NCBI GenBank assembly: GCA_020632265.1
Contig: JACKFW010000001.1
Span: forward strand, 791,272-855,271
Source: Pseudomonadales bacterium
GTDB taxonomy: Bacteria; Patescibacteriota; Microgenomatia; UBA1400; PJMF01
Reading direction: 5' to 3'
DNA: 64,000 nucleotides
The translations under genes were made by a program, and so were the position numbers. The notes under the pieces were generated by a model, which worked only from the letters and a program-made list of their open reading frames with translations, had not been told where the DNA came from and ran no database searches. Shown here piece by piece: positions 48,356 to 62,611 of the stretch (positions are counted from its first letter, which is position 1; every line of letters starts with the position of its first letter).

Positions 48356-49684
48356 CTAGGTCTTTATTTTTCTGAGATTTTTAATTGTATCAATTATTTT
48401 TTGATTTCCATTAAGAAATAAAGAATCGATTGAGTGGGCGTTATTCATGGCTTTTTCAATCCATGACTGTGATTTTCCCGAAGTTGAGGCGAGAACTTTA
48501 AGTTGAGGAACAATATTTTCAGTGTTTGCTTTTCGAGAAATATCTTTTTGTTCAAAAATTTCTCGAATTTTTTCTTCCCATTCACCCCATTCTGCTAAAG
48601 TAAGTATAAATGAACCAGATGCGGCGGCATCATAGGCCATATCGCCAGAGGGTTTTGATAAAAATCCGTCCGCCCAAGGAAAACCATATTTAATAAGCAA
48701 TTCATTGGCATTAACTAGTTGTGGATGGTAAATAATCCTTAGTTTTGCATTTGGTTCATCTAATTCCGAAATTTTGACTCGGAATTTTTTGGCTAAATTT
48801 TTGACTTCATTTTGAATATCTAAATGGGTAGCTGAATAAATTAATAATCGATATTTTGGTTTTTCTTTTTTAAGTTCAGGAAGAAGCTGTTCTAAAATTG
48901 CTTGAATTTCATTTTTATTAGTTCCTAAGCCTCCTGTAGTAACACAAAGATTAATCAAACCATTTCTCCAAGGAATTTTTTTATTTCGAGCCTTAATAAT
49001 TCTAGGATCGACGGGTGGACCAGTAACAAAAATTCTATTTGGATCTGCTTGGATTCCTAAATTGGTTGCTTTTTCTAGGAATTCAATTTTGGTTGATTCG
49101 TCAAAAACACAAAAAATAATATTTTTTTGATCAGCATATTTGACATATTCTTCTCTGACATGAGGATCGGTAATTACCTGTACTATTTGTTTTCCTTGTC
49201 CAGCCAGAATATTTCCTGCGGCAATATGGAGAGATAAAATTGGCGAATGAATATGTTCAGTTAAATATAATAATGGAGGAGTTATGCTTTTAAGAATTGG
49301 TAATTTTGATCTTCCAAAAGTATCAACGATGTCTTTAAGTTTTTTTAGAATTGGATGTCGTGCAAGAGTTTTACCAACTGCTTCAGTAAAAGTAATTGAA
49401 GACCAGTTCTTGTGAGATACGTAGTTGGTGGGGTCCACCACCCAAGCTTTATTGGGATCAATTTTATTTCCCCATGCTTTAATAGCAATTCCAGCTGCCA
49501 TGGAATAATGGGCTCTGGAAAAAACTACATCTCCAATTGTGTCATCGTCAGGATATCCATGAGATTTTTTGAGATCTTCTTTATAACTAGCTGATACAGT
49601 GATAATTGGAATTTCACTTTTTTCGAGGAATTCTTTGTCTTTTTTGAGTGATTTAATTAAATAAGGGTCAAATAGTTCGGGCAT
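48356..49684 (-). CDS. Hypothetical protein (442 aa), possibly a GT-B-fold glycosyltransferase-like enzyme.
   Basis: Long ORF with a Rossmann-like Gly-rich segment (VTTGGLGTNKNE). No firm motif was found. Confidence 0.35.
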   Translation of the reverse strand: MPELFDPYLIKSLKKDKEFLEKSEIPIITVSASYKEDLKKSHGYPDDDTIGDVVFSRAHYSMAAGIAIKAWGNKIDPNKAWVVDPTNYVSHKNWSSITFTEAVGKTLARHPILKKLKDIVDTFGRSKLPILKSITPPLLYLTEHIHSPILSLHIAAGNILAGQGKQIVQVITDPHVREEYVKYADQKNIIFCVFDESTKIEFLEKATNLGIQADPNRIFVTGPPVDPRIIKARNKKIPWRNGLINLCVTTGGLGTNKNEIQAILEQLLPELKKEKPKYRLLIYSATHLDIQNEVKNLAKKFRVKISELDEPNAKLRIIYHPQLVNANELLIKYGFPWADGFLSKPSGDMAYDAAASGSFILTLAEWGEWEEKIREIFEQKDISRKANTENIVPQLKVLASTSGKSQSWIEKAMNNAHSIDSLFLNGNQKIIDTIKNLRKIKT

Positions 49685-49895
49685 ATATAATAAATTATAT
49701 CTTAGATAAGGTCGATTTATCCAGTGGTTAAAGTTTGTTTACTTGATACTTAGTAAATAGTCTTTAGTTTTTCATTTAATTAATTTAATTTCGAAATTTT
49801 TTAGCTAAATTTTTGACTTAATAAATTTGTTGTTAATACTTGGTTTATATCGGATTTTTTATAGTTAAAATGATAAAATGCTTCTAATGGAAATT

Positions 49896-49966
49896 AGGGC
49901 CATAGTTTAGCGGTAGAATAGAGGTCTCCAAAACCTTTGACGGGGGTTCGATTCCCTCTGGCCCTG
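49896..49966 (+). tRNA. tRNA-Trp (anticodon CCA). It anchors the downstream cassette array.
   Basis: Acceptor AGGGCCA/TGGCCCT. D-arm GTTT-AGCGGTA-GAAT. Anticodon stem GAGGT/ACCTT with loop CTCCAAA. T-arm GGGGG-TTCGATT-CCCTC. The fold is closely similar to E. coli tRNA-Trp. The 3' 19 nt (GATTCCCTCTGGCCCTGCA) recur five times downstream. Confidence 0.85.
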
Positions 49967-49997
49967 CAAATATTTTCTAATTTGATACAATAAAAGT

Positions 49998-50387
49998 ATG
50001 AATCAAGATGAGCAAAGAATTCTTGCAGCAGCTGGCTGGTGCTTAAATAACCACCAAATTCCCAAATCTTTAAGTGATGGCAATTCTATTTGGAACTATT
50101 CTGGTTCTATTTCCAATTCTGAACTTAGACTGTACGAGGAAGATGGGCTGAACGTAATAATAAATAGAAGCGAAGTTAAAGAAATACTTCCAATTAGTCC
50201 AGAAAATAGAAATATCAAATATGGGGAAAAGAAGTGGCTAAATGGTGAATTGAACAGCAAATTCTATAATGGCATATTTTTTCTTCATGATGATATGAAG
50301 GTTTCTAGAGCTCTCGATGACTATTTAGATATTTCTCACCTAAGTGTGCGAATTGAAGGTGGACCAACCTTTTCAATTATAAAATAG
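49998..50387 (+). CDS. Cassette 1: hypothetical protein (129 aa).
   Basis: The ORF's stop codon TAG lies inside the boundary motif at 50383..50416. Confidence 0.5.
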   Translation: MNQDEQRILAAAGWCLNNHQIPKSLSDGNSIWNYSGSISNSELRLYEEDGLNVIINRSEVKEILPISPENRNIKYGEKKWLNGELNSKFYNGIFFLHDDMKVSRALDDYLDISHLSVRIEGGPTFSIIK

Positions 50388-50416
50388 GTTCTAACATCCT
50401 TCACTAGTCCCTGCAA
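50383..50416 (+). repeat. Short cassette-boundary motif (AATAGGTTC(G/T)AACATCCTTCACTAGTCCCTGCAA), copy a.
   Basis: It overlaps the stop codon of cassette 1. Confidence 0.8.
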
Positions 50417-50502
50417 CGCATTTTTTACTCGATATAGAAAATAAAAAACACTCAAAGGACACTCGGAAGTTTAAGCTTTAATTCATCTGATATAATTTCA
50501 CC

Positions 50503-51288
50503 ATGCAATTTAGAAAAATATCCTTTCCAAATGTAGTTCCGCCAACTGAATTTCCAGACGATGTAAAACTTTCTCTTCCAAACAATAGTAATTTACCAAC
50601 AGACCAACAACATTACTTATTATTCATTCCTTGGGAAGAAAGCTATCTCATTGGGATTCCTCGACAATATGTAGATTTCTTCAAACGAGTATTGCCACAT
50701 CTCCATACAAGAACAACTGATGTGCATACTGCGGTCTGCCTAGGCTATCTTGACGAGCTATTGTCTCAATTTGACCAACCGATCAATGAAAGAGTTGTTG
50801 CTTTAGCACTTATTCTTCATGACAGTGGTTGGAGCAAGCTTTCAGAAAAAGAAATAGCCATGAGCTTAGGTGTTTCAGGTCTGAAACTTACAGAAGGTGC
50901 CAAAAATCCCAAGGAAAAGCACGCGCTTGAAAGTGCGAAGATAACTACCAAAATGTTGAATGACTACGATTTCATTCCACCACTAAATGAAAAAGAAAAA
51001 GAACTTATCATCCAAGCTGTGCTTTATCATGACAAACCTGAAGAAGTTGCAGGGGCTGAAATAGAAATGCCCATTGAGATACAATTGCTAGTTGATTTAG
51101 ATCATCTTTGGTCTTTTACCCATCAAAATTTTTGGCAAGACACTTTACGTAAAGGAGTTCAGCCCAAAGAATATGTACAAAATTTACAACGAGACATTGA
51201 TGATTATTTTGTTACTGATCAGGGTAAAGAATTAGCCCTGAAATTACTTAACGAGAGACTTGATGAAGTAGAGGTAATTGAAAAATAG
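50503..51288 (+). CDS. Cassette 2: HD-domain phosphohydrolase-like protein (261 aa).
   Basis: ILHDSGW and LYHDKPEE motifs. The stop codon is embedded in the boundary motif at 51284..51317. Confidence 0.5.
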   Translation: MQFRKISFPNVVPPTEFPDDVKLSLPNNSNLPTDQQHYLLFIPWEESYLIGIPRQYVDFFKRVLPHLHTRTTDVHTAVCLGYLDELLSQFDQPINERVVALALILHDSGWSKLSEKEIAMSLGVSGLKLTEGAKNPKEKHALESAKITTKMLNDYDFIPPLNEKEKELIIQAVLYHDKPEEVAGAEIEMPIEIQLLVDLDHLWSFTHQNFWQDTLRKGVQPKEYVQNLQRDIDDYFVTDQGKELALKLLNERLDEVEVIEK

Positions 51289-51317
51289 GTTCGAACATCC
51301 TTCACTAGTCCCTGCAA
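51284..51317 (+). repeat. Short cassette-boundary motif, copy b.
   Basis: It overlaps the stop codon of the HD-domain cassette. Confidence 0.8.
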
Positions 51318-51451
51318 AAAACTAATTTTTGCCTATATACCAATATAATTTATACTAAAAGATTGCATATTTTTATCATTTAATCAATATACTTGTTATA
51401 TAAATAAACTCTCATCATTTTTAGATAATTTTGTACATGATAAAATAAACT

Positions 51452-51808
51452 ATGCTTGAAGAGGATAAATCAAAAAATTCAGAAATGGTCAAACTACCGA
51501 CGTTAAAAGATTGGATTGATAGACTAAGTGAGTTGAGAGATAAGATTTCTCCAGAAAAAGAATATTTAATTGGAGCATTTGCGACATATATGTATTTGCT
51601 AATTTTAGTTAGTCCTGAATCATTGCCTGGGCAAATTCAGCCAATGCTAGAGATGTTGAATGGAATTGATAAGAGTAGTTTTAGTCTTAAATTGACAACA
51701 ATGATTGCGTTTACTGGCTCAGTAGACGGTGCTAGAAGAATTGTTTTAGAGAGACTGCCTTCTTATAAAGCATATTTACAAGTATTTTTATTAAACAAAT
51801 TTGAATAA
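51452..51808 (+). CDS. Cassette 3: hypothetical protein (118 aa).
   Basis: The ORF is followed by the long boundary element at 51880..52096. Confidence 0.45.
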   Translation: MLEEDKSKNSEMVKLPTLKDWIDRLSELRDKISPEKEYLIGAFATYMYLLILVSPESLPGQIQPMLEMLNGIDKSSFSLKLTTMIAFTGSVDGARRIVLERLPSYKAYLQVFLLNKFE

Positions 51809-51879
51809 CAATTTCAATCCTTTGTTAGTTCGTTGATTATATAATTATAAGCCCAAAACCACCTCCCGACTCGAGGAAA

Positions 51880-52096
51880 AATAGGTTCGAACATCCTTCA
51901 CTAGTCCCTGCAAAATAAAATAAATCCCGAATGGGATTTCTTTTATTTTATGGGGTTGATAGGTGAATTTACCCATGCGAAGCATAGTTCTACCACATGG
52001 CGAACAAGCGAGAGCGCAGTGAGCCGGGTTAATGCATGCGAGCCAACTTACAGGAAGTATGATGTGGCGAGTCGCAGATTCCCTTTGGCCCTGCAA
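51880..52096 (+). repeat. Long cassette-boundary element, copy 1 (217 bp). It comprises the boundary motif, an intrinsic terminator hairpin (51917..51950), a ~150-nt GC-rich module and a 19-nt tRNA-Trp 3'-end copy. It is bracketed by the direct repeat CCCTGCAA.
   Basis: Seen directly. It ends in GATTCCCTTTGGCCCTGCAA, which matches the tRNA-Trp 3' end with one C>T change. It is followed by a TATAAT box at 52102..52107. Confidence 0.85.
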
Positions 52097-52107
52097 TATC
52101 CTATAAT
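52068..52107 (+). promoter_or_regulatory. Conserved outward-facing -10-like box (TCCTATAAT) immediately after the boundary elements. It is a candidate cassette promoter. The same arrangement occurs at 53035, 53834, 54767, 58714 and 61725.
   Basis: TATAAT or TATAAC occurs at a fixed offset (+6) after CCCTGCAA in 6 of 12 boundaries. A -35-like TTCACT lies 16 nt upstream in the short-motif versions. Confidence 0.3.
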
Positions 52108-52152
52108 AGTTATTCCGTCAAACAAAATGTGTTATAATTTCTCTAGTTGTTT

Positions 52153-53000
52153 ATGGTAATGACAGAAAAATCTCCAGTTTTAATGAGAGCTAATCCAGTT
52201 GAATTAGTTAAATTAGTTTGGTCTAATCGAGATAAAATTCCTAATTTTTTAAGCAGTTAAGAGAAATTATTAATGACGGAAAAGATTTAAATAAGAGATC
52301 TCTTTATGAAGATCTTAACCATATTAACGAATTATTTGGTACTTCAATTGAAATTGATGGTGTTGAAAATATTCCAAAAGAGGGTGGTGTAGTTGTTGTA
52401 ACATCTCATGTGGTCAATGTTAAAAACGCTCCGGGATGGAAGAACAAAAATGTCAATCCGTTTTGGTGGGCGAGTGGGATTGCTGAGGGTGTTAAAAAAG
52501 CTAGAAATGAAGAAATTCATCCAGTTGTCTATTCTCCAGGATCAAGCCTTTACACTCAAATAATCAGAGATGTATTTGATGGTTTTCCAGTTAGTCATAA
52601 AAAAGATGATAAAAGGAAAAATCACGAATCGATTATGCTGGCAAGAAAAGCAGTTGATCGAGGACAGGTAGTTTTAATAGCACCTGAGGGTGAAAATAGG
52701 ATTGGTTTAAGTAAACCTCACTTGGGTGGAATTAGTCGCTTACTTAGTAGTAGAACTATGTTTGTTCCAGTAGCTTTTTTTGAATTGGAGTCTGGAGGTG
52801 ATTTTTCGTATAAAGTTATTTTTGGAAAGCCAGTGACCTGTGATTTTGATTTACCTCTTCCAAAAAATTCAAGTGATTCTTTGCCACTAGATGAAGATGA
52901 TAGAAATAGAGTTGATGATTTTGTAGATTATTTAATGATTAGAATTGCTTCATTATTACCAGAAGATAAAAGAGGAGTTTATACAGATAAACTTAAATAA
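52153..53000 (+). pseudogene. Cassette 4: PlsC/LPLAT-family acyltransferase-like gene, apparently disrupted by a +1 frameshift at a T6 run (~52244..52250). The downstream ORF (GTG at 52410) continues the protein.
   Basis: ORF 52153..52259 (MVMTEKSPVLMRANPVELVKLVWSNRDKIPNFLSS*) is followed in the +1 frame by ...LFGTSIEIDGVENIPKEGGVVVVTSHVVNV... and APEGENRIG. These are acyltransferase motif I and III-like. The 3' end lies in boundary motif 52997..53029. Confidence 0.45.
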
Positions 53001-53029
53001 GTTCCAACATCGTTCACTAGTCCTTGCAA
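52997..53029 (+). repeat. Short cassette-boundary motif, copy c (variant GTTCCAACATCGTTCACTAGTCCTTGCAA). It is followed by TATAAT at 53035..53040.
   Basis: It overlaps the TAA stop of the acyltransferase-like gene. Confidence 0.75.
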
Positions 53030-53112
53030 TGTCCTATAATAGTTATATCCCCAAAGTACAGTGACATTTCTTCAATATTTTAATTGCAATAACTTATTGT
53101 ATAATTTGATAA

Positions 53113-53556
53113 ATGATATATAACAACTTCAATTATGACAATAAATCAATTCAAAATGATTTTGAACTAGAAAAAGTAACAAAACAAATTGAATCAGAAT
53201 TGATTGAAGGATTTCAATTAAATGAAGATGATGAAATAAAAGTAACTTTCTTCGCTCCAATAGAAATTGGGGTAATAATTAAATCTAAAGAATTTAATAT
53301 AAAGTTTAGTCTTTTAACTAGAAAAATTGGTCGCTGTGTTGATATTTATAGTATTTCGGTCACAAACAAAGGAGTAGGAGTAGGAAGAAAAGTATTAACG
53401 AAAATCGAGGAAATAGGAAAAAAATATAGCTGCAAGATGGTTAATATAATCGGACCCCTAAAGAAAAGTATAAAATTTTACGAAAAACTTGGCTATGTAA
53501 AGAAGTATACTTCCCCTTTTGATAGAGATATGGTAAAGATATTGAGTGCTAATTGA
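53113..53556 (+). CDS. Cassette 5: GNAT-family N-acetyltransferase (147 aa).
   Basis: Motif A region KGVGVGRKVL and FYEKLGYV. It is followed by a long boundary element. Confidence 0.65.
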   Translation: MIYNNFNYDNKSIQNDFELEKVTKQIESELIEGFQLNEDDEIKVTFFAPIEIGVIIKSKEFNIKFSLLTRKIGRCVDIYSISVTNKGVGVGRKVLTKIEEIGKKYSCKMVNIIGPLKKSIKFYEKLGYVKKYTSPFDRDMVKILSAN

Positions 53557-53611
53557 ATTTATGATTTCAGATAACTTTTTTTATTGATGCTTACTTGATA
53601 TCTAATAGAAA

Positions 53612-53828
53612 CATAGGTTCTAACATCCTTCACTAGTCCCTGCAAAATAAAATAAATCCCGAATGGGATTTCTTTTATTTTATGGGGTTGATAGGTGAAT
53701 TTACCCATGCGAAGCATAGTTCTACCACATGGCGAACAAGCGAGAGCGCAGTGAGCCGGGTTAATGCATGCGAGCCAACTTACAGGAAGTATGATGTGGC
53801 GAGTCGCAGATTCCCTTTGGCCCTGCAA
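53612..53828 (+). repeat. Long cassette-boundary element, copy 2.
   Basis: It is identical to copy 1 and lies inside the 1,732-bp duplication. Confidence 0.85.
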
Positions 53829-53884
53829 TATCCTATAATAGTTATTCCGTCAAACAAAATGTGTTATAATTTCTCTAGTTGTTT

Positions 53885-54732
53885 ATGGTAATGACAGAAA
53901 AATCTCCAGTTTTAATGAGAGCTAATCCAGTTGAATTAGTTAAATTAGTTTGGTCTAATCGAGATAAAATTCCTAATTTTTTAAGCAGTTAAGAGAAATT
54001 ATTAATGACGGAAAAGATTTAAATAAGAGATCTCTTTATGAAGATCTTAACCATATTAACGAATTATTTGGTACTTCAATTGAAATTGATGGTGTTGAAA
54101 ATATTCCAAAAGAGGGTGGTGTAGTTGTTGTAACATCTCATGTGGTCAATGTTAAAAACGCTCCGGGATGGAAGAACAAAAATGTCAATCCGTTTTGGTG
54201 GGCGAGTGGGATTGCTGAGGGTGTTAAAAAAGCTAGAAATGAAGAAATTCATCCAGTTGTCTATTCTCCAGGATCAAGCCTTTACACTCAAATAATCAGA
54301 GATGTATTTGATGGTTTTCCAGTTAGTCATAAAAAAGATGATAAAAGGAAAAATCACGAATCGATTATGCTGGCAAGAAAAGCAGTTGATCGAGGACAGG
54401 TAGTTTTAATAGCACCTGAGGGTGAAAATAGGATTGGTTTAAGTAAACCTCACTTGGGTGGAATTAGTCGCTTACTTAGTAGTAGAACTATGTTTGTTCC
54501 AGTAGCTTTTTTTGAATTGGAGTCTGGAGGTGATTTTTCGTATAAAGTTATTTTTGGAAAGCCAGTGACCTGTGATTTTGATTTACCTCTTCCAAAAAAT
54601 TCAAGTGATTCTTTGCCACTAGATGAAGATGATAGAAATAGAGTTGATGATTTTGTAGATTATTTAATGATTAGAATTGCTTCATTATTACCAGAAGATA
54701 AAAGAGGAGTTTATACAGATAAACTTAAATAA
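53885..54732 (+). pseudogene. Duplicate copy of the frameshifted acyltransferase-like cassette (second unit of the 1,732-bp tandem duplication).
   Basis: It is identical to 52153..53000, shifted by 1,732 bp. Confidence 0.45.
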
Positions 54733-54761
54733 GTTCCAACATCGTTCACTAGTCCTTGCAA
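54729..54761 (+). repeat. Short cassette-boundary motif, copy d (duplicate of c).
   Basis: It is identical to copy c, shifted by 1,732 bp. Confidence 0.75.
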
Positions 54762-54844
54762 TGTCCTATAATAGTTATATCCCCAAAGTACAGTGACATT
54801 TCTTCAATATTTTAATTGCAATAACTTATTGTATAATTTGATAA

Positions 54845-55288
54845 ATGATATATAACAACTTCAATTATGACAATAAATCAATTCAAAATGATTTTGAACT
54901 AGAAAAAGTAACAAAACAAATTGAATCAGAATTGATTGAAGGATTTCAATTAAATGAAGATGATGAAATAAAAGTAACTTTCTTCGCTCCAATAGAAATT
55001 GGGGTAATAATTAAATCTAAAGAATTTAATATAAAGTTTAGTCTTTTAACTAGAAAAATTGGTCGCTGTGTTGATATTTATAGTATTTCGGTCACAAACA
55101 AAGGAGTAGGAGTAGGAAGAAAAGTATTAACGAAAATCGAGGAAATAGGAAAAAAATATAGCTGCAAGATGGTTAATATAATCGGACCCCTAAAGAAAAG
55201 TATAAAATTTTACGAAAAACTTGGCTATGTAAAGAAGTATACTTCCCCTTTTGATAGAGATATGGTAAAGATATTGAGTGCTAATTGA
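54845..55288 (+). CDS. Duplicate GNAT-family acetyltransferase cassette.
   Basis: It is identical to 53113..53556, shifted by 1,732 bp. Confidence 0.65.
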   Translation: MIYNNFNYDNKSIQNDFELEKVTKQIESELIEGFQLNEDDEIKVTFFAPIEIGVIIKSKEFNIKFSLLTRKIGRCVDIYSISVTNKGVGVGRKVLTKIEEIGKKYSCKMVNIIGPLKKSIKFYEKLGYVKKYTSPFDRDMVKILSAN

Positions 55289-55343
55289 ATTTATGATTTC
55301 AGATAACTTTTTTTATTGATGCTTACTTGATATCTAATAGAAA

Positions 55344-55560
55344 CATAGGTTCTAACATCCTTCACTAGTCCCTGCAAAATAAAATAAATCCCGAATGGGA
55401 TTTCTTTTATTTTATGGGGTTGATAGGTGAATTTACCCATGCGAAGCATAGTTCTACCACATGGCGAACAAGCGAGAGCGCAGTGAGCCAGGTTAATGCA
55501 TGCGAGCCAACTTACAGGAAGTATGATGTGGCGAGTCGCAGATTCCCTCTGGCCCTGCAA
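55344..55560 (+). repeat. Long cassette-boundary element, copy 3.
   Basis: It is near-identical. Its 3' 19 nt exactly match the tRNA-Trp 3' end (GATTCCCTCTGGCCCTGCA). Confidence 0.85.
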
Positions 55561-55669
55561 ACGTTCAATTTTTGACTGTAAATAGGCCTTTTTTAATTTA
55601 AGTATTTTCAAAATTCAGATACTTTGCTGAAAAATAGTGTTTAGCAATACTTTGATATAATGTTGGCTT

Positions 55670-56830
55670 ATGATTTCTAAAGAACATATTCCACTCGGAG
55701 CATACTTTTATCCATTAACTAACTCATGTCCTATTAGAAATAAGAGGGCGAAAGAACTGGGATTTAAGTCTTCAACTAATGAAACACTATTAGCTCAAGA
55801 AGCCGAGTCCTTATTTGAAGGACACGATCAACCAAAGACCTACTCTTTAGGTGATCTCGATAAAACAGTTTGGGATGATAGTGACAGGGATTCAATGGCT
55901 ATACAAATTGAATTAGCTCAGGAGCATGAGCTAGATTTTTTTATTTTTAATTCTTACATGGGAAATAGGTATGGAGTGTTTATGCATGAAGCAAGCGCGC
56001 CTTTAGATGACAATTTTTTAGAAATAGTTGATCCGAATGGTATGAAATTTGCTACAATGATTACTAAAGGTGGAACTAGAGCTGCACTTCCAATTCCTTT
56101 TGGAGAGGCCTCAAGCGAGCCTAATCGCGACTATGATATCTCTGTTGAATCCGCAAGGGCAATAGTGGACAAGTGTGCTCGAACGTATTGGGATCATCCA
56201 AATTATTTATTTTTACAACAAAAACCATATTTGTCTTATTGGTTGCCAGGATTTTCAAATAATAAAATTGCACAACAACATGTTACTGATTTTGTTGATG
56301 AAATTTATAATTATTCTCTAAAACAATATGGCATCGATCCTTATTTAGTTGGGGTTATTAAGAGAGCAAACCAAGTTAGAAGTTATATTGAATTGGGATT
56401 AGATCATTTAACTTCATATGCCATGTTGGCAGATTTTTCTTCTCAAGCCGATCCCATACAGGTATATGAGGATAGAGTTGAAGCAGTTGGCAAAGAGTGG
56501 GCTGAGATAAAAGATTTGGGAGCTATTTTTGTTCCATCCGCTGTTATTGGTTGGGATGGTTCTCCTAGGGGAGAAAAAGGTCGATCATGGAATGAAGTTA
56601 AAGGAACTTACCCACACTCGCCAGTCATTATTGATGAAACCCCAGAAAAATTTAGCATTATGCTGGCAAATGCACTAAAGTTTGTAGCAGAAAATGTCCC
56701 TAAAGAAGATCGGTATGGTGTTGTTTGCGCTTGGAATGAAGTTACTGAAGGAAGTGCGCTTTTGCCTAGAATATTTGACAATGAACCAAGTTTCGCATAT
56801 TTAGAAATAATAAAAAATTTAAGTAAGTAG
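55670..56830 (+). CDS. Cassette: hypothetical protein (386 aa), possibly glycoside-hydrolase or WbsX-like. The assignment is weak.
   Basis: Long ORF bounded by long repeat elements on both sides. Confidence 0.45.
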   Translation: MISKEHIPLGAYFYPLTNSCPIRNKRAKELGFKSSTNETLLAQEAESLFEGHDQPKTYSLGDLDKTVWDDSDRDSMAIQIELAQEHELDFFIFNSYMGNRYGVFMHEASAPLDDNFLEIVDPNGMKFATMITKGGTRAALPIPFGEASSEPNRDYDISVESARAIVDKCARTYWDHPNYLFLQQKPYLSYWLPGFSNNKIAQQHVTDFVDEIYNYSLKQYGIDPYLVGVIKRANQVRSYIELGLDHLTSYAMLADFSSQADPIQVYEDRVEAVGKEWAEIKDLGAIFVPSAVIGWDGSPRGEKGRSWNEVKGTYPHSPVIIDETPEKFSIMLANALKFVAENVPKEDRYGVVCAWNEVTEGSALLPRIFDNEPSFAYLEIIKNLSK

Positions 56831-56903
56831 CTTTATAAAAAAGCACGTGAATTTTTTTGACTTACTTATTATAAGCCCAAAACCACCTCCCAACTAGAGG
56901 AAA

Positions 56904-57119
56904 AATAGGTTCGAACATCCTTCACTAGGCCCTGCAAAATAAAATAAATCCCGAATGGGATTTCTTTTATTTTATGGGGTTGATAGGTGAATTTACCCAT
57001 GCGAAGCATAGTTCTACCACATGGCGAACAAGCGAGAGCGCAGTGAGCCAGGTTAATGCATGCGAGCCAACTTACAGGAAGTATGATGTGGCGAGTCGCA
57101 GATTCCCTCTGGCCCTGCA
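56904..57119 (+). repeat. Long cassette-boundary element, copy 4.
   Basis: It is near-identical and shares an extra ~45 bp of upstream homology with copy 1 (TTATAAGCCCAAAACCACCTCCC.ACT.GAGGAAAAATAGG). Confidence 0.85.
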
Positions 57120-57204
57120 TCTCAATTTTTTACTTAATTCCTCTCAAGTATAAGGGTTCTGACCACAACATAGACAGTGAGACAAAATAGAACCTAGGGT
57201 ATAC

Positions 57205-57729
57205 TTGCAATATATGAGGGATTTTCAAAATATTTCATTGATTATTGTTTCAGGTCCACTTGGATCGGGAAAATCTAGTCTTTGCAAGAAAATTGAAGAT
57301 GAGCTTGCATTTTCTCGAGTTGATGGTGATTCATTTTTTGTTCCGCTCGAAAAAACTAGTTTGAGTTGGGAGGAAAGAGGACAAAAAAGTTGGCAGTGGA
57401 TAGCTAGTCAAACAAAAAAACACCTTAGCAGTGGAAAAAAAGTTGTTCTTGATTTTGTTGTAGAAAATGAATTACCTTGGTTTTTGTCACAAATAGAAGA
57501 ATATAATGTGCGGGTTAAATATATTGTGTTAATTGCTGAAGAAGAAACAATTAAGAAAAGATTGCATAAGAGAGATGGTGGTCTTCAATACTACGAACGA
57601 TCAAAAGTTCTTTTGGATCAACTGAAAAACGAACCCCAAAATAACAAATATCTGCTAGACACAACTGGGATGACTACTGATGAAGTTTATGATTATGTTG
57701 TAAATAACGAACGCTTCATTTTGAAATAG
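57205..57729 (+). CDS. Cassette: P-loop NTPase/kinase (AAA_33, zeta-toxin or small-molecule-kinase-like; 174 aa).
   Basis: Walker A GPLGSGKSS at the N-terminus. The stop codon is embedded in boundary motif 57725..57758. Confidence 0.55.
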   Translation: MQYMRDFQNISLIIVSGPLGSGKSSLCKKIEDELAFSRVDGDSFFVPLEKTSLSWEERGQKSWQWIASQTKKHLSSGKKVVLDFVVENELPWFLSQIEEYNVRVKYIVLIAEEETIKKRLHKRDGGLQYYERSKVLLDQLKNEPQNNKYLLDTTGMTTDEVYDYVVNNERFILK

Positions 57730-57758
57730 GTTTCAACATCCTTCACTAGCCCCTGCAA
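57725..57758 (+). repeat. Short cassette-boundary motif, copy e. It is followed by a decayed remnant of the terminator-hairpin region.
   Basis: AATAGGTTTCAACATCCTTCACTAGCCCCTGCAA, then AGTAAAATAATCCCGATATTGATA. Confidence 0.75.
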
Positions 57759-57811
57759 AGTAAAATAATCCCGATATTGATAACTTGAAATATTCTGATA
57801 TATTTTGAGAG

Positions 57812-58504
57812 ATGTCAAATACTGAAAACAGTGTGTATGTTATTTCTTCAGTCAGGGGTGTCTCTGAACTAGAAAGAACAGAAATTGAGCAACATATAAG
57901 AAACTTGCGTCAGTCGGGAGAAGAAGTATTTGATCCGTATTTAGACGCACCTCAAACTGATACAAGCGGTCTTGCAATAATACTCGCAGAATTGAATTTC
58001 TTGGTAAAGCTGTCAGAGTCTAGTGATCTTGGAAGGGTTGATATTTTTTGGAATCATACAAGTGAGGGTTCAAGGGTAGATGTTGGGATGGCTATAGCCT
58101 TAAACCTAAGGATTAATCTGGTTAAAATTTTTAATGAGAATGAGAGCTCTTCTCCTCAACTTGTGTTGCGACTTATTACCGAAATCTGTGAGCTTCAGGA
58201 AATGAGTAACTGGCCACCACAAAAACGAAAAGAAATTAGCCCTGATCTTGCCAAAACACTCAGATATTTAGATGAAATAAAAAACTCTGAGCAAATATCA
58301 ATTAATTGGAATTCATTGGATTCAGAAGAAGCTGAATTTCAGAGATTAATCTTGGGTTTGTCGCTGGGGACAATGGGTAAGAGAAACAAAAATTTAAAAA
58401 TAAAAATAAGAGATGTTGATGGGTATGTTGACCCCGATGTAAAAAGTTATCCTAATGCAATTTCGGCACTAAATACATTACTGACAACTGAAAATAGGTT
58501 CTAA
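57812..58504 (+). CDS. Cassette: hypothetical protein (230 aa).
   Basis: The ORF terminates at TAA inside the boundary motif (58493..58708), in a different frame from the other cassettes. Confidence 0.45.
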   Translation: MSNTENSVYVISSVRGVSELERTEIEQHIRNLRQSGEEVFDPYLDAPQTDTSGLAIILAELNFLVKLSESSDLGRVDIFWNHTSEGSRVDVGMAIALNLRINLVKIFNENESSSPQLVLRLITEICELQEMSNWPPQKRKEISPDLAKTLRYLDEIKNSEQISINWNSLDSEEAEFQRLILGLSLGTMGKRNKNLKIKIRDVDGYVDPDVKSYPNAISALNTLLTTENRF

Positions 58505-58708
58505 CATCTTTCACTAGTTCCTGCAAAAATAATAAATCCCGAATGGGATTTCTTTTAATTTATGTGGTCGATAGGTGAATTTAGCCATGCAAAGCATAGT
58601 TCTACCACATGGCGAACAAGCGAGAGCGCAGTGAGCCAGGTTAATGCATGCGAGCCAACTTACAGGAAGTATGATGTGGCGAGTCGCAGATTCCCTCTGG
58701 CCCTGCAA
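58493..58708 (+). repeat. Long cassette-boundary element, copy 5 (most diverged).
   Basis: About 90% identical. It has an exact tRNA-Trp 3' copy and is followed by TATAAT at 58714..58719. Confidence 0.85.
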
Positions 58709-58776
58709 AATCCTATAATAGTAATATATTCTTCTCAAACATTGTTTCCAATTTATCTATATGACATAATAAAGTT

Positions 58777-59631
58777 ATGGAAACAGATAAAATCAACACA
58801 CCAACCCAACTAGAAGTAAATCAATCAGAACAAGCAGGTCCACTGCACACCACACAGCCACCTCAAACAAAGAACATGAAAGTTTGGATGGGTGTTGGGA
58901 TATTGTTACTTTTTGTAATATCTGCTGGTAGTTACAGATTGGGTCAGAACAATGGCAAAAAATCATCTAGTATTACTGATAGTAAACTGGAAACTTCAAA
59001 CCCAATAGAGACTGATAATGCTGTGGCATGTACTGCAGATGTCAAAGAATGTCCTGATGGATCATTTGTAGGTAGAGTAGCTCCTAATTGTGAGTTTGAA
59101 GATTGTGGAAATACGATTGATGATCAAGAAACTGAGCAGACTATAGAAAAGAATAGTCTTGAAGAAGGCTCAAATGTTTTACTTTACAAAAATGATATTT
59201 TTGGATTTATGGTTGAATATCCAATAAGTTATACAGTTGTTGATAAGTTGCAGTTAGATAATGCAGAATGGAGACCCGATAAAGATCTTACTTTTATAGA
59301 TGATCAAAATATAAAAAATCCTTCAATTTCTCTAAGATTAGATTATGATGGTTATGGAGTAAGTTTTCCGCTCGAAATATGGAAAATAATTTATGATGAG
59401 CTTCAACAAAAGCTAATTATTGAGAATAAAGAAGTTCAGGATAGATCCTTTATTAAAGAAGCAACAGGAGAAGATATTAGTAATGTATTGATTGTCACTG
59501 GATCAGAAAGAACTATTTTTTCAGACAAGCAAAGGAGTTTGTCTTTTATTTTGAAGTATGAAGGTGAAAAAGATTTAGAAATAGAAAATCAATTTGAAGC
59601 ATTTATTGAGAGTTTTAAGCTAGTTAAATAA
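58777..59631 (+). CDS. Cassette: membrane-anchored protein with a CxxDxxECPDGSFVGRVAPNCEFEDC motif (284 aa).
   Basis: N-terminal TM (VWMGVGILLLFVISAGSY). The Cys motif is shared with ORF 44403..46121. Confidence 0.5.
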   Translation: METDKINTPTQLEVNQSEQAGPLHTTQPPQTKNMKVWMGVGILLLFVISAGSYRLGQNNGKKSSSITDSKLETSNPIETDNAVACTADVKECPDGSFVGRVAPNCEFEDCGNTIDDQETEQTIEKNSLEEGSNVLLYKNDIFGFMVEYPISYTVVDKLQLDNAEWRPDKDLTFIDDQNIKNPSISLRLDYDGYGVSFPLEIWKIIYDELQQKLIIENKEVQDRSFIKEATGEDISNVLIVTGSERTIFSDKQRSLSFILKYEGEKDLEIENQFEAFIESFKLVK

Positions 59632-59672
59632 GTTCTAAATAAATAGCATGTTGGAGTGGTCGTTTGAGGAAA

Positions 59673-59706
59673 AATAGGTTCTAACATCCTTCGCTAGTCC
59701 CTGCAA
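59673..59706 (+). repeat. Short cassette-boundary motif, copy f.
   Basis: GAGGAAAAATAGGTTCTAACATCCTTCGCTAGTCCCTGCAA. Confidence 0.8.
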
Positions 59707-59773
59707 ATAACCAATATTTGCCTATAAATCAATCCAAATTGACTAAGTTCTAATATCGTCTACTTGATACTTT

Positions 59774-60388
59774 TTGTCTGATATACTCATATTATGTATG
59801 CCAAATGATGAAATATCAGTTGAGTCACAACCTGTAGCTGAAAAACCTAAACTGAAAGAACAACCTTTACCTCCTCACTGGACCTATTTAATTCATGGGT
59901 CAAACTTAGAAAAGCCTCAGTGGCAAGGAGATGGAGTTGATCAGTTAGATGGAGATATGTTTATTATCAAAGGATCGGGGCTCTCTGTTATCGATAAAGC
60001 CGATAAAGAGATGGCACAACAAGAAGCTGAGGAAATGAGAGCAAGAGGTATAAAAACTGGTGGTTATAACACCACAAGTAACTATTCAAGAGGCAGAGGC
60101 ACTCCTCTTGAAATTAGAGTGATTTTCCCCTCATTTAATTCGAGGAGTCCCTTAACTAAAGAGCAACGAGCTGAGCTTGTTAAAAAATATGGTGAAGAAA
60201 TAGTCCAGGCTCTTTATGAATTGGCAGATATGGTACATTGGAATAACTACAAGAGTGGCAGACATCCATTTTTACCAAAAGGCATGAAGCTCTCAAAAAT
60301 CATGGATCAAACTTTAGAAGAGAGACGAATCATTCAGTATGTTCCCGAGATGATCTTCAATATATATCAACAAGAGGTGGCTAAATAA
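59774..60388 (+). CDS. Cassette gene: hypothetical protein (204 aa).
   Basis: The ORF abuts the NUDIX gene (TAA-ATG). Confidence 0.45.
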   Translation: MSDILILCMPNDEISVESQPVAEKPKLKEQPLPPHWTYLIHGSNLEKPQWQGDGVDQLDGDMFIIKGSGLSVIDKADKEMAQQEAEEMRARGIKTGGYNTTSNYSRGRGTPLEIRVIFPSFNSRSPLTKEQRAELVKKYGEEIVQALYELADMVHWNNYKSGRHPFLPKGMKLSKIMDQTLEERRIIQYVPEMIFNIYQQEVAK

Positions 60389-60862
60389 ATGACAAAATAT
60401 AACCCAAACCATTCCCAAGAAGTTATAAATTATTTAGTTGGACAGAAAGTAGTCATTTTTAATTCAGAAGGCCAAATTTTATTCTTAAGAAGATCTGAAA
60501 AGTGCACAAGAGCAGGAGGGTGGGATTTTCCAGGAGGTGGATTGGAAAATGAACAACCAACTGAAGGTATTAAAAGAGAGGCAAGAGAAGAAGTGGGTAT
60601 TGAAGTTAGCGGATTGAAACCTGTAGCTTTAATTTCCCATGAAAGCAAAGAACCAGGAGTAAGAGTACTTCTTGTTGGTTATGTTGCTTATTTGAAATCT
60701 GGTAATGTTAAACTTAGTTGGGAGCACGACGCTCATAAATGGCTTAAGATCGACGAAGCTCTTAAAGTTGATTTGCCAGAAGGTCATAGAAAGTTTCTTG
60801 ATGCAGCAATTGAGTCTTGGGAAACAAAATATGTCAGAATACCATCTGGGGTTTTATTATGA
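60389..60862 (+). CDS. NUDIX hydrolase (157 aa).
   Basis: Nudix box GGGLENEQPTEGIKREAREEVGI fits Gx5Ex7REUxEExGU. Confidence 0.75.
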   Translation: MTKYNPNHSQEVINYLVGQKVVIFNSEGQILFLRRSEKCTRAGGWDFPGGGLENEQPTEGIKREAREEVGIEVSGLKPVALISHESKEPGVRVLLVGYVAYLKSGNVKLSWEHDAHKWLKIDEALKVDLPEGHRKFLDAAIESWETKYVRIPSGVLL

Positions 60863-61554
60863 TATTTGAACAAAATACTCCAGCTATGGAAAATGAGATA
60901 GATATCGAGCCAAAAACAATCGACGGTAAAATGCAAGCTGTTTTTACAGCGATGAGGAAAATGAAATATCTGGTACCTCTATCTGAAGCTCTCGCTATTA
61001 GGGATCCAAGTAAACATGATCAACTAGTAAGTGAAAGGTATATGCAACGAGACTGGAGGACTATCATTGCAGAGAGCAAAGAAAACTCTGATATGGGACC
61101 ATTAGCTTGCGCAGAAGTAGCCCTAATAGCAAAAAAATTAACAGAAGAAACTTATGGATTACAGGTAAGAATGGTTGATACTCTGAGTAAGCACTGGCTC
61201 CAAGACAAGGAGGGATCAGGGCAAGGTCATGTATTTATCGAAGTATTCGATCATGATACTGAGGATTGGCAAGTTTATAATCCAGTAACTGGAGAAAAAT
61301 GTCAGTGGGAAGAAGATGAGGATGGAAAATACATTCATTGGAAGGCGGGATATCAAATCTCCTTGGATAAAACGTTAACGATTGATGATAATTATTATCG
61401 TTGGTTGGAAGAGAATTCTGAGAATGTTCCAGAAGATGGTGTTGGATATGAGGGGTTGTATCAAATTAGTGATAGGGATAAAGACTATTTTGATTCTATG
61501 CAAAGAATGGCTTCTGAAGCAAATATAATATATCAAAATAAAGGCAAGATGTAA
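60859..61554 (+). CDS. Hypothetical protein (~232 aa), translationally coupled to the NUDIX gene (ATGA overlap).
   Basis: The ORF track start is at 60817. An ATG at 60859 overlapping the NUDIX stop codon is the more plausible start. Confidence 0.4.
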   Translation: MIFEQNTPAMENEIDIEPKTIDGKMQAVFTAMRKMKYLVPLSEALAIRDPSKHDQLVSERYMQRDWRTIIAESKENSDMGPLACAEVALIAKKLTEETYGLQVRMVDTLSKHWLQDKEGSGQGHVFIEVFDHDTEDWQVYNPVTGEKCQWEEDEDGKYIHWKAGYQISLDKTLTIDDNYYRWLEENSENVPEDGVGYEGLYQISDRDKDYFDSMQRMASEANIIYQNKGKM

Positions 61555-61685
61555 TCCTCTCAGTCTACGCAATAGCTCTTCTTTTTCAAAATATAAGATC
61601 AATGCCAAAATGGATTCTTAAAGGTGTCTAATGAACTAGATAACTTAAACTTATAATAACGCAAAATCGCCATCTCCCTCAATAA

Positions 61686-61719
61686 AATAGGTTAGAACAT
61701 CCTTAACTAGTCCCTGCAA
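61686..61719 (+). repeat. Short cassette-boundary motif, copy g. It is followed by TATAAC at 61725..61730.
   Basis: AATAGGTTAGAACATCCTTAACTAGTCCCTGCAATATCCTATAAC. Confidence 0.8.
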
Positions 61720-61740
61720 TATCCTATAACTATTGATTTT

Positions 61741-62235
61741 GTGCAATTTTTTGATAAAATCAATTTTATGTCGAAAGAAAATCTCATTATTATTGAACAA
61801 AATAATCTTCTACTTGATATTATAAAAGAAATTGAATCTGGTTTGTTAGAAAAATATGTTGGTCATGGTATCTCAAGGGGAACTCCACAAGAACAATATC
61901 TATCACTGATCAGTATATTACAAACTGGTAGAATAATTGGGAATTGGGCAACATTATTACCGGATTCATATGAAGGTGCATATTCTCATGGTAGTTTTCT
62001 TTTGCTTTCTTATTATGGAAAAAACTTAGTTGTTGCCGAAAAACTACATTTAAATGTAGTTATAGTCAATGGTTACTTTGAATCACAAATTTCTGAACTT
62101 GAAGGAATGTTTCCTGAAGTTACATTTATCCATGCAAAGGATTTTAATAATTGGATAATAAATGAATCAAAAATACTAAATAGATTCAAAAAATTAAAAA
62201 AATACTGGAGATTGCCAAGTCGAACTGTCAGATAG
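61741..62235 (+). CDS. Cassette: hypothetical protein (164 aa).
   Basis: It is preceded by boundary motif 61686..61719 plus a TATAAC element. It is followed by a degenerate motif copy at ~62249..62275. Confidence 0.45.
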   Translation: MQFFDKINFMSKENLIIIEQNNLLLDIIKEIESGLLEKYVGHGISRGTPQEQYLSLISILQTGRIIGNWATLLPDSYEGAYSHGSFLLLSYYGKNLVVAEKLHLNVVIVNGYFESQISELEGMFPEVTFIHAKDFNNWIINESKILNRFKKLKKYWRLPSRTVR

Positions 62236-62611
62236 ATGAGGTTAAAAATAGATTAGAACACCACCCACCAAACAATATCTATTTTGTTGAAAAAAATGGC
62301 AAATGGGTTGGGATAATTGTCTCATATGTAAGCGAAAAGGAAAAAATTGAATAATATTATGAATAAAGCTGGATTTTATGTTGTGCTCGAATAGCGTGAC
62401 AAAATGAAATGAAGTATCGCAATATAGTCCTAGAATATTTACTTATTATCCGAAAATTGATATAATTGTTTATTCTCTGATGCTTAAATATAACTATTAT
62501 AATGTTTTTTTGGCTTCTTCTAATTAACATATTTGGCTGGTTAAACTAGTCCATGATTATAAAAAAACTTGGTTTTTTGAATAAATAAACCTAATAAAAT
62601 ACATAAATAAA

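Follow-up and report, generated by a model that had tools for sequence, protein, structure and literature searches.

Behind a tRNA-Trp gene in a metagenome-assembled Patescibacteria genome, a composite repeat recurs five times among small, co-oriented gene cassettes. What this repeat is, and how it came to lie between the cassettes, are the questions that the locus raises. We analysed a 64,000-nt stretch of one contig, hereafter called the window, together with related loci from other genomes. The preliminary description had treated the repeat as one 217-bp boundary element. We found that it is two adjacent things: the 3' end of an upstream cassette and a separate unit without an ORF.

A cassette array lies behind tRNA-Trp

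The array and its repeats are located as follows.

49896-49969, + strand: genuine tRNA-Trp (CCA) with trailing CAA (tRNA gene at 49896-49966; ARAGORN; Rfam tRNA, 66 bits)
49970-64000, + strand: tRNA-Trp-anchored array of co-oriented cassettes, each closing with the 32-nt motif
50385, 51286, 51882, 52998, 53614, 54730, 55346, 56906, 57727, 58495, 59675 and 61688, + strand: starts of the 32-nt motif
51882-52096, + strand: copy 1 (focal), motif and 183-nt unit (from sequence)
51882-51913, + strand: focal 32-nt motif, the end of the upstream cassette, terminating in core CCCTGCAA at 51906-51913 (0 mismatches)
51914-51951, + strand: bidirectional intrinsic-terminator hairpin, stem at 51922-51939, T-runs on both sides (terminator scoring)
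51952-52076, + strand: GC-rich non-coding core, 52% G+C (sequence, alignment, folding)
52077-52096, + strand: last 17 nt of tRNA-Trp plus CAA (GATTCCCTTTGGCCCTGCAA), holding the right-hand core CCCTGCAA (from sequence)
52097-55560, + strand: two tandem 1732-bp copies of a block made of a 196-aa ORF cassette, a GNAT cassette and the unit
53614-53828, + strand: copy 2, motif and 183-nt unit, the unit identical to that of copy 1
55346-55560, + strand: copy 3, motif and 183-nt unit
56906-57120, + strand: copy 4, motif and 183-nt unit, terminating in CCCTGCAT
58495-58708, + strand: copy 5, motif and 182-nt unit, the most diverged (174 to 176 of 183 positions identical)

The 32-nt motif is TAGGTTCNAACATCCTTCACTAGTCCCTGCAA, with GTTNNAACATCNTTNNCTAGNNNNTGCAA as its degenerate form. 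The window holds 12 copies, against 0 expected. They fall between 50385 and 61719, all on the + strand, and none lies in the window outside the array. The array extends about 5 kb past the window end and has four further, decayed motif copies there. The farther a motif copy lies from the tRNA, the more mismatches it tends to have (Spearman rho 0.78, p = 4e-4). The first triplet of the motif is usually the stop codon of the upstream cassette, and directly upstream of the motif is a conserved sequence of about 35 nt that contains a CCTC-N7-GAGG hairpin. The cassettes carry accessory cargo (GNAT, NUDIX, kinase, HD, Fic and toxin-antitoxin genes), and some appear to have promoter-like sequences of their own. 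The 164-aa protein of the last cassette had no record in a protein look-up.

The motif is a diverged look-alike of the tRNA 3' end, with which it has only GGTTCGA and CCCTGCAA in common. The 8-mer CCCTGCAA occurs 16 times in the window (1.5 expected by chance), and the spacing between these cores is 183 to 2013 bp per unit. Conservation is one-sided, being found only to the left of CCCTGCAA. The motif alignment has no inverted right arm at the core, which a classical tyrosine-recombinase core site would have, and inspection of the motif found no Xer/dif-like dyad. As single-stranded DNA, the motif with its flanks folds no better than shuffled sequences on either strand (z of -0.4 to +1.2). The end of tRNA-Trp, GATTCCCTCTGGCCCTGCAA, starts the array and is, judging from sequence, the probable primary attachment sequence.

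Such arrays are not confined to this genome. Motif arrays behind tRNA-Trp were found in many Patescibacteria MAGs, and the motif-bearing MAGs are labelled Pacebacteria, Woesebacteria, Nealsonbacteria and Paceibacterota. We collected 53 distinct motif instances; in the loci that also contain tRNA-Trp, the motifs are on the tRNA strand.

The composite repeat is a cassette end followed by a separate unit

All five copies of motif plus unit that had been listed are present, on the + strand and with pairwise identities of 95 to 100%. Their composite anatomy had also been read correctly: every copy has, in this order, the 32-nt motif, the bidirectional terminator hairpin, a GC-rich core of about 125 nt and a copy of the tRNA-Trp tail. 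The hairpin is AAATCCC-GAAT-GGGATTT, with T-runs flanking both sides. The core is about 51% G+C (50 to 52%), compared with 33.6% for the window. The right end, GATTCCCT(C/T)TGGCCCTGCA(A/T), reproduces the final 17 nt of tRNA-Trp and the CAA that follows. The 183-nt units match pairwise at 174 to 183 of 183 positions.

The idea of a single element did not hold. The 32-nt motif belongs to the upstream cassette, and the terminator hairpin is also found without the core in two related loci (L015 and L039), so the unit itself is separable. The unit is bounded on either side by CCCTGCAA. It behaves like a cassette in that it begins right after one CCCTGCAA and finishes with another. The long and short boundary forms do differ only by what lies between two CCCTGCAA copies, although this distance is 183 bp and not about 199 bp. 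The 8-mer was also rightly recognized as the tRNA-Trp end.

Copies 1 to 3 are not independent, because they bracket the 1732-bp tandem duplication. The duplicates differ at only two positions, 53758 and 53817, each within the unit, and these two SNPs place the duplication junction at or to the left of the 5' part of the unit. Copies 4 and 5 have unrelated flanks on both sides.

Junctions always fall at the 8-mer

CCCTGCAA is the sole sequence common to all four junction types, whether tRNA or motif meets unit or cassette, and homology always starts and stops there. The downstream neighbors of the unit belong to the same leader classes as those that follow plain motifs. An upstream cassette ending in ...gatcaagtgtataaa has different right-hand neighbors in L014 versus L009/L017. 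These junctions agree with the proposal that the 8-mer is a recombination core, in the sense that every junction type shares it and nothing else; that the recombination is site-specific is what we infer from this pattern.

The preliminary description had also proposed that long and short boundaries interconvert. We observed one precise gain or loss of a cassette: between L031 and L032, which have the same flanking protein, one cassette is present or absent precisely at tRNA...CCCTGCAA. Among the related loci compared, no strain pair differed in this way by the 183-nt unit itself. Exact-protein look-ups for variation at module boundaries gave only contigs that break inside the unit.

The unit sits between tRNA-Trp and a copy of its end in close relatives

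In four related Patescibacteria genomes, the unit directly follows the genuine tRNA-Trp (L002, L013, L015 and L016/L028). In L002, L013, L015 and L028 it is flanked by tRNA-Trp on one side and by a 20-nt copy of the tRNA end on the other. This arrangement has the signature of a tiny integrated element, with the tRNA's 3' terminus directly repeated at its two sides; such a repeat of the target is the mark by which tRNA-targeting elements are recognized. The unit also follows 32-nt motifs, five times in the window and again in L009/L017.

The unit is limited to close relatives, in which the neighboring 442-aa protein is at least 75% identical. There it is about 80 to 85% identical overall and 83 to 90% in its first 40 nt. 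The core accepts insertions and tandem expansions at one spot (L002 and L017). A covariance model built from eight sequences found no further divergent copies in 27 loci, and an exact 22-mer of the core had no match in GTDB representative genomes. One locus, L014, has an analogous unit of different sequence (type D), composed of a motif, another terminator, a GC-rich stretch and a tRNA-Trp tail copy. That tail copy has the acceptor base of L014's own tRNA.

Two other origins were considered and rejected. A viral or phage origin found no match among viral contigs, and the INPHARED phages gave just a 39-nt low-complexity match. For a MITE or IS-derived element, the ends pair with each other only if G.T is allowed (GGGGTYG and AGGGCCA agree at 3 of 7 positions as DNA), and the 8-nt repeat belongs to the 20-nt tRNA copy and is no generic target duplication.

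The explanation that we favor, and to which we give an even chance, is that this is a non-autonomous unit that enters by site-specific recombination at the tRNA-Trp 3' end and re-creates the attachment site, with its core acting in cis.

The core is non-coding and its pairing is modestly supported

The unit is non-coding. ORFs of 53 to 106 aa exist on both strands, but they are not kept open across sequence types. The hairpin scores as an intrinsic terminator on both strands, and its stem is compensated in relatives (AAATCCC/GGGATTT to AGAACCC/GGGTTCT).

The core contains a C-GAA-G mini-hairpin, a type-specific central hairpin and a GCC...GGC hairpin. Its ends are conserved, and three different central hairpins of 7 to 9 bp each were read by eye from the sequences. 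Between types, the change from ATGC-GAA-GCAT to ACAC-GAA-GTGT is a compensated hairpin change. The 5' end of the core, GGGGTTG, is complementary to the tRNA-derived 3' end via G.U pairs. A long-range CCACAT...ATGTGG helix that had been suggested was not recovered: it has no covariation and is not kept in other types, and ATGTGGC pairs locally with GCCA.

We scored the consensus structure on the alignment that yielded it, which drew on a sample of about nine distinct core sequences from about six genomes. With eight sequences, and the structure taken from the same alignment, 97.8% of the cells were paired, three pairs had two-sided changes and 11 had one-sided wobble changes. The consensus fold scored better on the + strand (column-shuffle z of -2.5) than on the - strand (-1.5), and z for single sequences was weak (-0.3, -0.3, -1.4, -1.8 and -2.2). 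Support for pairing in the core is modest and favors the + strand.

The same data bear on a possible, though not probable, alternative: that the core encodes a small, tRNA-like RNA descended from tRNA-Trp, and the unit is cargo with a function in trans as a tRNA-Trp mimic or decoy. Its RNA could come from read-through transcription from tRNA-Trp or the upstream cassette and be trimmed by RNase P and 3' tRNA-end processing, conceivably at the acceptor-like helix GGGGUYG/UGGCCCU followed by a discriminator G. A core G+C of 51 to 53% in a 34% genome, like that of the tRNAs, fits this picture, as does the better fold of the + strand. A 7-bp terminal helix is predicted in all sequence types, and the three or four differences from the tRNA 5' acceptor strand are all transitions that preserve pairing via G.U. 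Of the 13 transitions that we counted in the predicted helices of the pair table, 12 preserve + strand pairing. The exchange of the central hairpin between types with its stem retained, and the single spot that tolerates insertions, also suit an RNA. However, no sigma-70-type promoter lies between terminator and core, and an efficient-looking terminator is directly upstream in four of four types. The core has no T-arm. Rfam, at gathering and permissive thresholds, matched neither the window unit nor types B, C and D, and ARAGORN found no tRNA or tmRNA on the unit. In types A and B the minimum free energy is no better than that of shuffles, and pairings compete (GARUC-GYA-GAUUC with UGCGA/UCGCA). 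Type D from L014 lacks the 5' acceptor-like strand. On how the unit moves, the small-RNA explanation overlaps with the one that we favor.

An unlikely alternative is that the unit is a functionless relic, left by an old duplication of the tRNA-Trp 3' region or by an integration there and amounting to a pseudo-tRNA whose middle was replaced, and that its copies arose from unequal homologous recombination and gene conversion only. Copies 1 to 3 are demonstrably tied to duplication by homologous or unequal exchange, and 95 to 100% identity within a genome fits recent duplication or conversion and not selection. The weak thermodynamic signal, the missing promoter and the narrow, patchy distribution point the same way. 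Nevertheless, the unit is retained in at least five genomes and is better conserved than the flanking intergenic DNA (about 80 to 85% versus about 62 to 64%). Three sequence types uphold the stems, with conserved ends and a variable hairpin. The independently built analogue in L014 and the unrelated flanks of copies 4 and 5 also argue against a relic.

An assembly artefact, such as a repeat that was collapsed or wrongly joined in this metagenome-assembled genome, is a scarcely credible source of the copies. Independent short-read contigs of the same genome do break exactly within the unit (L042 begins at window position 58680, and L044 is a 1395-nt contig with only the cassette between copies 3 and 4). 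The repeat structure is thus evidently hard to assemble, and any doubt falls above all on the 1732-bp tandem duplication. But true multi-copy repeats produce just such breaks. The copies also differ by SNPs, their left flanks are of four kinds and so are their right flanks, and a contig of another genome (L017) likewise has multiple copies of the unit.

No recombinase gene was found in or near the array

Pfam scans found no recombinase among window ORFs of at least 150 aa or among cassette ORFs, and none in the 25 commonest among 56 Pfam families matched by 60 ORFs of related arrays. No recombinase gene lies within 7 kb past the window end. The 442-aa gene divergent from tRNA-Trp was considered as an IntI analogue and rejected, having no Pfam match. 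Its protein is widely conserved, including in genomes without arrays, and we judge it to be a housekeeping gene. In one relative (L019, L023 and L025), a large serine recombinase element is present at tRNA-Trp as a separate prophage-like insertion of about 7 kb.

Natural transformation together with homologous exchange between repeats, of either 32 or 183 nt, could give the same junctions; a ComEC homologue is encoded at 15749-17137.

The array resembles known systems but differs from each

Small recombinase-less elements in tandem at one chromosomal site are known from integrative mobile elements that exploit Xer at dif and from pdif modules. Xer/dif elements rely on a recombinase that the host encodes at another place, and successive pdif modules point in alternating directions. 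The units here are likewise small, lack a recombinase and stand in tandem at one chromosomal site, but they have no 11-6-11 dyad and are all direct.

Insertion directly downstream of an intrinsic terminator or attC hairpin is characteristic of group IIC introns. Similarly, the core starts 2 nt past the terminator hairpin and T-run. However, a core of about 140 nt is several-fold too short for such an intron and has neither a GUGYG start nor a reverse transcriptase. We rejected a group IIC intron, as the unit has no domain 5/6 (RF00029) match. A genuine group II domain 5-6 does occur in a related array (L017:34-120).

Cis-mobilizable elements (CIMEs) lack an integrase and accrete in tandem at a tRNA 3' end (Guedon et al. 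2017, PMC5704250), and tycheposons build tRNA-anchored islands in Prochlorococcus (Hackl et al., bioRxiv 10.1101/2020.12.28.424599). Like these, the present array begins at the 3' end of a tRNA gene, has units separated by partial copies of the tRNA end, appears to have its newest units beside the tRNA with older ones pushed outward and decaying, and contains many units without a recombinase of their own. In contrast to those elements of many kb, the units here are mostly single genes of 0.4 to 2 kb or the gene-less 183 nt. Most separators are the 32-nt motif, conserved across divergent Patescibacteria, and not tRNA copies, and we found no integrase or integrase remnant in any array read here.

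Integron cassette arrays include the integrase-less CALIN arrays (Cury et al. 2016, PMC4889954). The likeness lies in co-oriented, mostly single-ORF cassettes that each close, at the 3' end, with a putative recombination site, in a primary site that borders the array on one side, in the occurrence of ORF-less cassettes and in the accessory cargo. Unlike attC, which is a hairpin conserved in structure, the cassette-end site here is conserved in sequence and has no hairpin fold. The array's primary site is the end of a tRNA gene, some cassettes apparently have their own promoter-like sequences, and no IntI was found in Pfam scans of the window ORFs and the genes past the window end.

A model for capture at tRNA-Trp

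In the explanation that we favor, a recombinase encoded elsewhere in the genome, and thus acting in trans, would insert and remove units at the CCCTGCAA core. It would read the conserved sequence to the left of that core, which is supplied by the end of tRNA-Trp, by the 32-nt motif or by the end of the unit itself. New units would enter next to the tRNA, and older ones would decay distally. Each 183-nt unit would then be a re-made authentic primary attachment site, insulated by its terminator, within the array. The core may act in cis as a folded + strand nucleic acid, perhaps a tRNA-like RNA, a DNA single strand or an arm that binds protein. The unit copies could also serve as homology for unequal crossing-over, of the kind seen in the 1732-bp duplication.

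More speculatively, and well short of an even chance, Patescibacteria might have a cassette-capture system that is analogous to integrons but built from unrelated parts: tRNA-Trp as primary site, the 32-nt motif as cassette site, a recombinase elsewhere and the unit as platform cassette. In this scenario, the folded tRNA-like + strand core might join in capture as a scaffold or guide RNA. Alternatively, it might be a single-strand initiation or recognition structure for single-stranded DNA cassettes that arrive via competence.

An integron-like cassette array next to tRNA-Trp in the ultra-small Patescibacteria is apparently undescribed. The motif and unit, as sequences or descriptions, were absent from the searchable literature, a coverage that excludes most subscription journals. 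Short-read assemblies are broken by such arrays. The 183-nt unit is the piece likeliest to reveal the mechanism, as it holds the authentic attachment sequence and a conserved folded core together. In the Patescibacteria, or candidate phyla radiation, genomes are tiny, and the gain and loss of accessory genes is poorly understood. A cross-lineage hot spot of 32-nt-tagged single-gene cassettes behind tRNA-Trp would be a concrete, searchable mechanism of gene flux, and the 32-nt tag would serve as a simple metagenome marker for the flexible gene pool of these bacteria.

A cassette array anchored at tRNA-Trp

The window has the gene content of a Patescibacteria-type chromosome, including nusG-rplK-rplA-rplJ, several aminoacyl-tRNA synthetases and comEC. 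The flanking protein matches a 1.08-Mb contig of the source MAG (locus tags H6772_*), which was deposited as "Pseudomonadales bacterium." This label appears mistaken; the gene content, the G+C (34% in the window) and the closest homologues are those of Patescibacteria. Two features define the locus:

49896-49967, plus strand: tRNA-Trp(CCA)
49970-64000 (to about 68970 in the source genome, as seen in L042): array of single-gene cassettes in one orientation, anchored at tRNA-Trp and each with a terminal 32-nt motif

All genes past the last base of the tRNA are small and on the plus strand, with the motif TAGGTTCNAACATCCTTCACTAGTCCCTGCAA between them. Allowing up to 3 mismatches, the window holds 12 copies (0 expected by chance), and none lies outside the array elsewhere in the 64 kb. 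The cargo is typical accessory material, namely GNAT, NUDIX, HD, P-loop kinase, WbsX-like and Fic proteins, methyltransferases, and toxin-antitoxin pairs. L042, assembled independently from the same genome, is identical to the window across a 5321-nt overlap and carries the array about 5 kb past the window end, where four motifs are increasingly decayed. Motif mismatches increase with distance from tRNA-Trp (rho 0.78, p = 4e-4), as expected if new units enter beside the tRNA.

The TTCACT of the motif lies 16 nt upstream of a TATAAT from the next cassette (window 53013-53040, and every cassette starting TATCCTATAAT). The two form a promoter-like site split over the cassette junction; other cassettes have their own TTGCCT-16-TATACT-type sites. 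Ahead of the motif, about 35 nt of conserved non-coding sequence (TATAAGCCCAAAACCACCTCCCRACTCGAGGAAAAA) also extends some cassettes (window 51845-51881 and 56869-56905; also in the related loci L002, L005, L013, L015 and L017). It holds a CCTC-N7-GAGG hairpin resembling an anticodon arm, and the cassette end may therefore originate in the 3' two-thirds of a tRNA.

Two other repeats were seen in the window. A 41-nt direct repeat with promoter resemblance (48770-48810 and 49782-49822, 83% identical, AATTT...TTTTGACTT.AT) has one copy in the coding region of the neighboring 442-aa gene and the other in the intergenic DNA just upstream of tRNA-Trp. Two near-identical copies of about 42 nt lie side by side at about 27986-28075 (...tttttgaggtatttgct.cgtgcgttgactcgCTTGCAatatt...); they came to light in a search for CYTGCA sites.

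A separate 183-nt unit follows the motif at five boundaries

Five of the motif copies have another 183 nt behind them (182 in copy 5). First comes a hairpin, scored as an intrinsic terminator on both strands; then a core of roughly 125 nt with 50-52% G+C; and finally a 3' end, GATTCCCTYTGGCCCTGCAA, identical to the final 17 nt of tRNA-Trp and the CAA trailing the gene. The preliminary description had recognized these parts, together with the motif, at the same five boundaries. However, it placed about 199 bp between the two 8-mers, and the actual spacing is 183 bp. All five copies are present, with pairwise identities of 174 to 183 of 183, but copies 1 to 3 are not independent, because they bracket a 1732-bp tandem duplication. 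The duplicated repeats differ only at 53758 and 53817, both within the unit.

The anatomy of the proposed single 217-bp composite stands, but it is two things. The motif belongs to the upstream cassette, because its first triplet (TAG/TAA) is the upstream ORF's stop codon in most cassettes, and because cassettes end in the motif with or without the trailing stretch. The 183-nt stretch counts as a separate unit, because it starts directly after one CCCTGCAA and ends in another (16 occurrences in the window versus 1.5 expected), its left neighbors are unrelated cassettes, and its right neighbors have the same leader classes as those after plain motifs (e.g., TATCCTATAAT..., ...CAATTTTTGCCTATA...).

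Distribution among relatives

Scanning one genome per species with a degenerate form of the motif gave 13 loci, most with Patescibacteria-type names (Pacebacteria, Woesebacteria, Nealsonbacteria, Paceibacterota). Three (L003, L011 and L012) are labelled "uncultured Pseudomonadales," like the source MAG, which we take as a mistake, and one is just "uncultured bacterium." An Opitutales MAG gave one weak match, with 7 mismatches, which is probably due to chance. In every locus from the scan that also held tRNA-Trp, the motifs were downstream of it on the same strand. With further arrays collected through homologues of the 442-aa gene, we gathered 53 distinct motif instances. Arrays are present in L002, L004-L006, L008-L014, L017, L018-L024, L031 and L038.

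The unit is rarer than the motif. Profile and covariance-model searches found it only where the 442-aa protein is at least 75% identical. In four genomes (L002, L013, L015 and L016/L028) it comes straight after the genuine tRNA-Trp, with a 20-nt direct repeat of the tRNA end on its two sides. In L009/L017 it lies within the array behind 32-nt motifs, as in the window. The hairpin is separable from the core, since in L039/L040 tRNA-Trp is followed by nothing more than a truncated hairpin, and a motif in L015 is followed by the hairpin without the core. One array carries an analogue:

L014:1645-1807: motif, a different terminator, about 125 nt of GC-rich sequence with an 11-bp hairpin, then AAGTCCCTCCGGCCCTGCAA

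Its tail copy has the same acceptor-side base as the tRNA-Trp of L014 itself. The analogue shares only short strings with the window unit (CGAGAGCGCA, ATAGTTCT and TGCGAG), in a different order.

Evidence for movement at the shared junction sequence

L031 and L032, from different samples, encode an identical 438-aa flanking protein and are one whole cassette apart. In L032, cttgaatccctttg is directly behind the ...CCCTGCAA of the tRNA; in L031 an additional cassette of some 410 bp stands between the two, and it is the motif of that cassette that cttgaatccctttg follows. Neighbors also differ: behind the cassette that ends in ...gatcaagtgtataaa-motif, L009/L017 have the unit and L014 has a different sequence. 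CC(C)TGCA(A) is the sole sequence common to the tRNA/unit, motif/unit, motif/cassette and tRNA/cassette junctions, and all tRNA-Trp genes examined end in CCTGCA, including those with different acceptor stems. Together with the gradient of motif decay, these comparisons support the earlier suggestion that CCCTGCA may be the recombination core. Motif conservation covers the left side and the core 8-mer only. No inverted right arm was visible beside the motif among the instances compared, and the 32-nt motif does not form a hairpin.

Pfam searches found no integrase, resolvase or transposase in the window ORFs of at least 150 aa and the cassette ORFs, in the genes past the window end, or among the 25 commonest of the 56 families that 60 ORFs of 15 related array loci matched. 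Two further features were noted in relatives:

L019:6835-8382 (also in L023 and L025), opposite strand to tRNA-Trp: large serine recombinase gene, 515 aa
L017:34-120 = L009:4467-4553, minus strand: group II intron domain 5-6 (RF00029; 35 bits, E = 6e-4; domain 5 convincing)

The recombinase gene sits at one edge of a prophage-like insertion (about 7 kb, with LexA-like and HTH genes) that separates tRNA-Trp from the cassette array. In one relative it terminates about 60 nt inside tRNA-Trp. L018 contains the DNA of the L019 recombinase with no gene called there. The tRNA-Trp of the relative with the insertion is unusually divergent, and a partial tRNA copy was not found at the far end of the insertion. 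The intron match is at a contig start, within a cassette array and immediately 5' of a cassette ORF. Terminators and integron attC sites are known targets of group IIC introns.

The unit core is non-coding and conserved

The core is non-coding; no open frame is kept across the sequence types on either strand. It had no Rfam match at any threshold and no tRNA or tmRNA call. In an alignment of 8-9 distinct sequences both ends are conserved, and the first 40 nt of the unit are 83-90% identical across genomes, compared with about 63% for their flanking intergenic DNA. Three versions of the middle occur, unrelated to one another; each forms a stem of 7-9 bp with a single mismatch at its center (read by eye):

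Type A: ACC(ACA)TGGC / GCCAGGT
Type B: GGCGAGTG / CACACGCC
Type C: CCAAGTGCC / GGCACCTGG

At one point the core accepts changes in length: the insertions there (L017:6543-6807 and L002:4890-4935) are tandem expansions of a piece of about 38 nt with TTGCTTCGCAA, and of TTCACCT. A mini-hairpin changes from ATGC-GAA-GCAT to ACAC-GAA-GTGT, compensated at both pairs. The 5' end of the unit, GGGGTYG, is complementary to the tRNA-derived UGGCCCU; where it departs from AGGGCCA, the 5' strand of the tRNA itself, every change is a transition and pairing is kept through G.U.

The RNAalifold consensus, from a small sample and with the structure derived from the alignment being scored, had 97.8% of cells paired, 3 pairs with two-sided changes and 11 with one-sided changes. 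By our tally of the pair table, plus-strand pairing is kept in 12 of 13 transitions. A column-shuffle control gave z = -2.5 for the plus strand and -1.5 for the minus strand. Overall, the core seems to be a conserved, folded and strand-asymmetric non-coding element; it may work as an RNA, as single-stranded DNA or as an arm bound by protein.

The core could be a tRNA-like small RNA carried as cargo, which would be compatible with mobility. We consider this possible but doubtful. Folded singly, sequences of types A and B do no better than shuffles, and those of the other types only moderately better; there is no sigma-70-like promoter ahead of the core; and an efficient-looking plus-strand terminator lies 2 nt upstream of it in every type. 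The small sample, and the scoring of the structure on its own source alignment, also weigh against an RNA gene.

Interpretation

The reading with the best support is that small units without a recombinase have accreted in tandem at the tRNA-Trp 3' end. New units would enter beside tRNA-Trp. The 183-nt unit would be an ORF-less cassette with a terminator that restores an authentic primary site within the array. Its copies could also supply homology for unequal exchange; judging by its SNP pattern, the 1732-bp duplication has its junction at or left of the unit's 5' part. A distinct capture system in which the folded core takes part is a tentative and rather unlikely proposal. We think it improbable that the unit is a functionless relic spread by homologous recombination, and highly improbable that the repeats are an assembly artefact.

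In the literature searched, whose coverage excludes most subscription journals, we found no paper with the motif or tRNA-tail sequence and nothing relevant on Patescibacteria cassette arrays, islands or tRNA-Trp. The accretion logic is that of CIMEs (PMC5704250) and of Prochlorococcus tRNA islands (bioRxiv 10.1101/2020.12.28.424599), and the array is like integrons in grain size and in the design of a cassette with its own site. We class the finding as tRNA-anchored accretion with integron-like cassettes.
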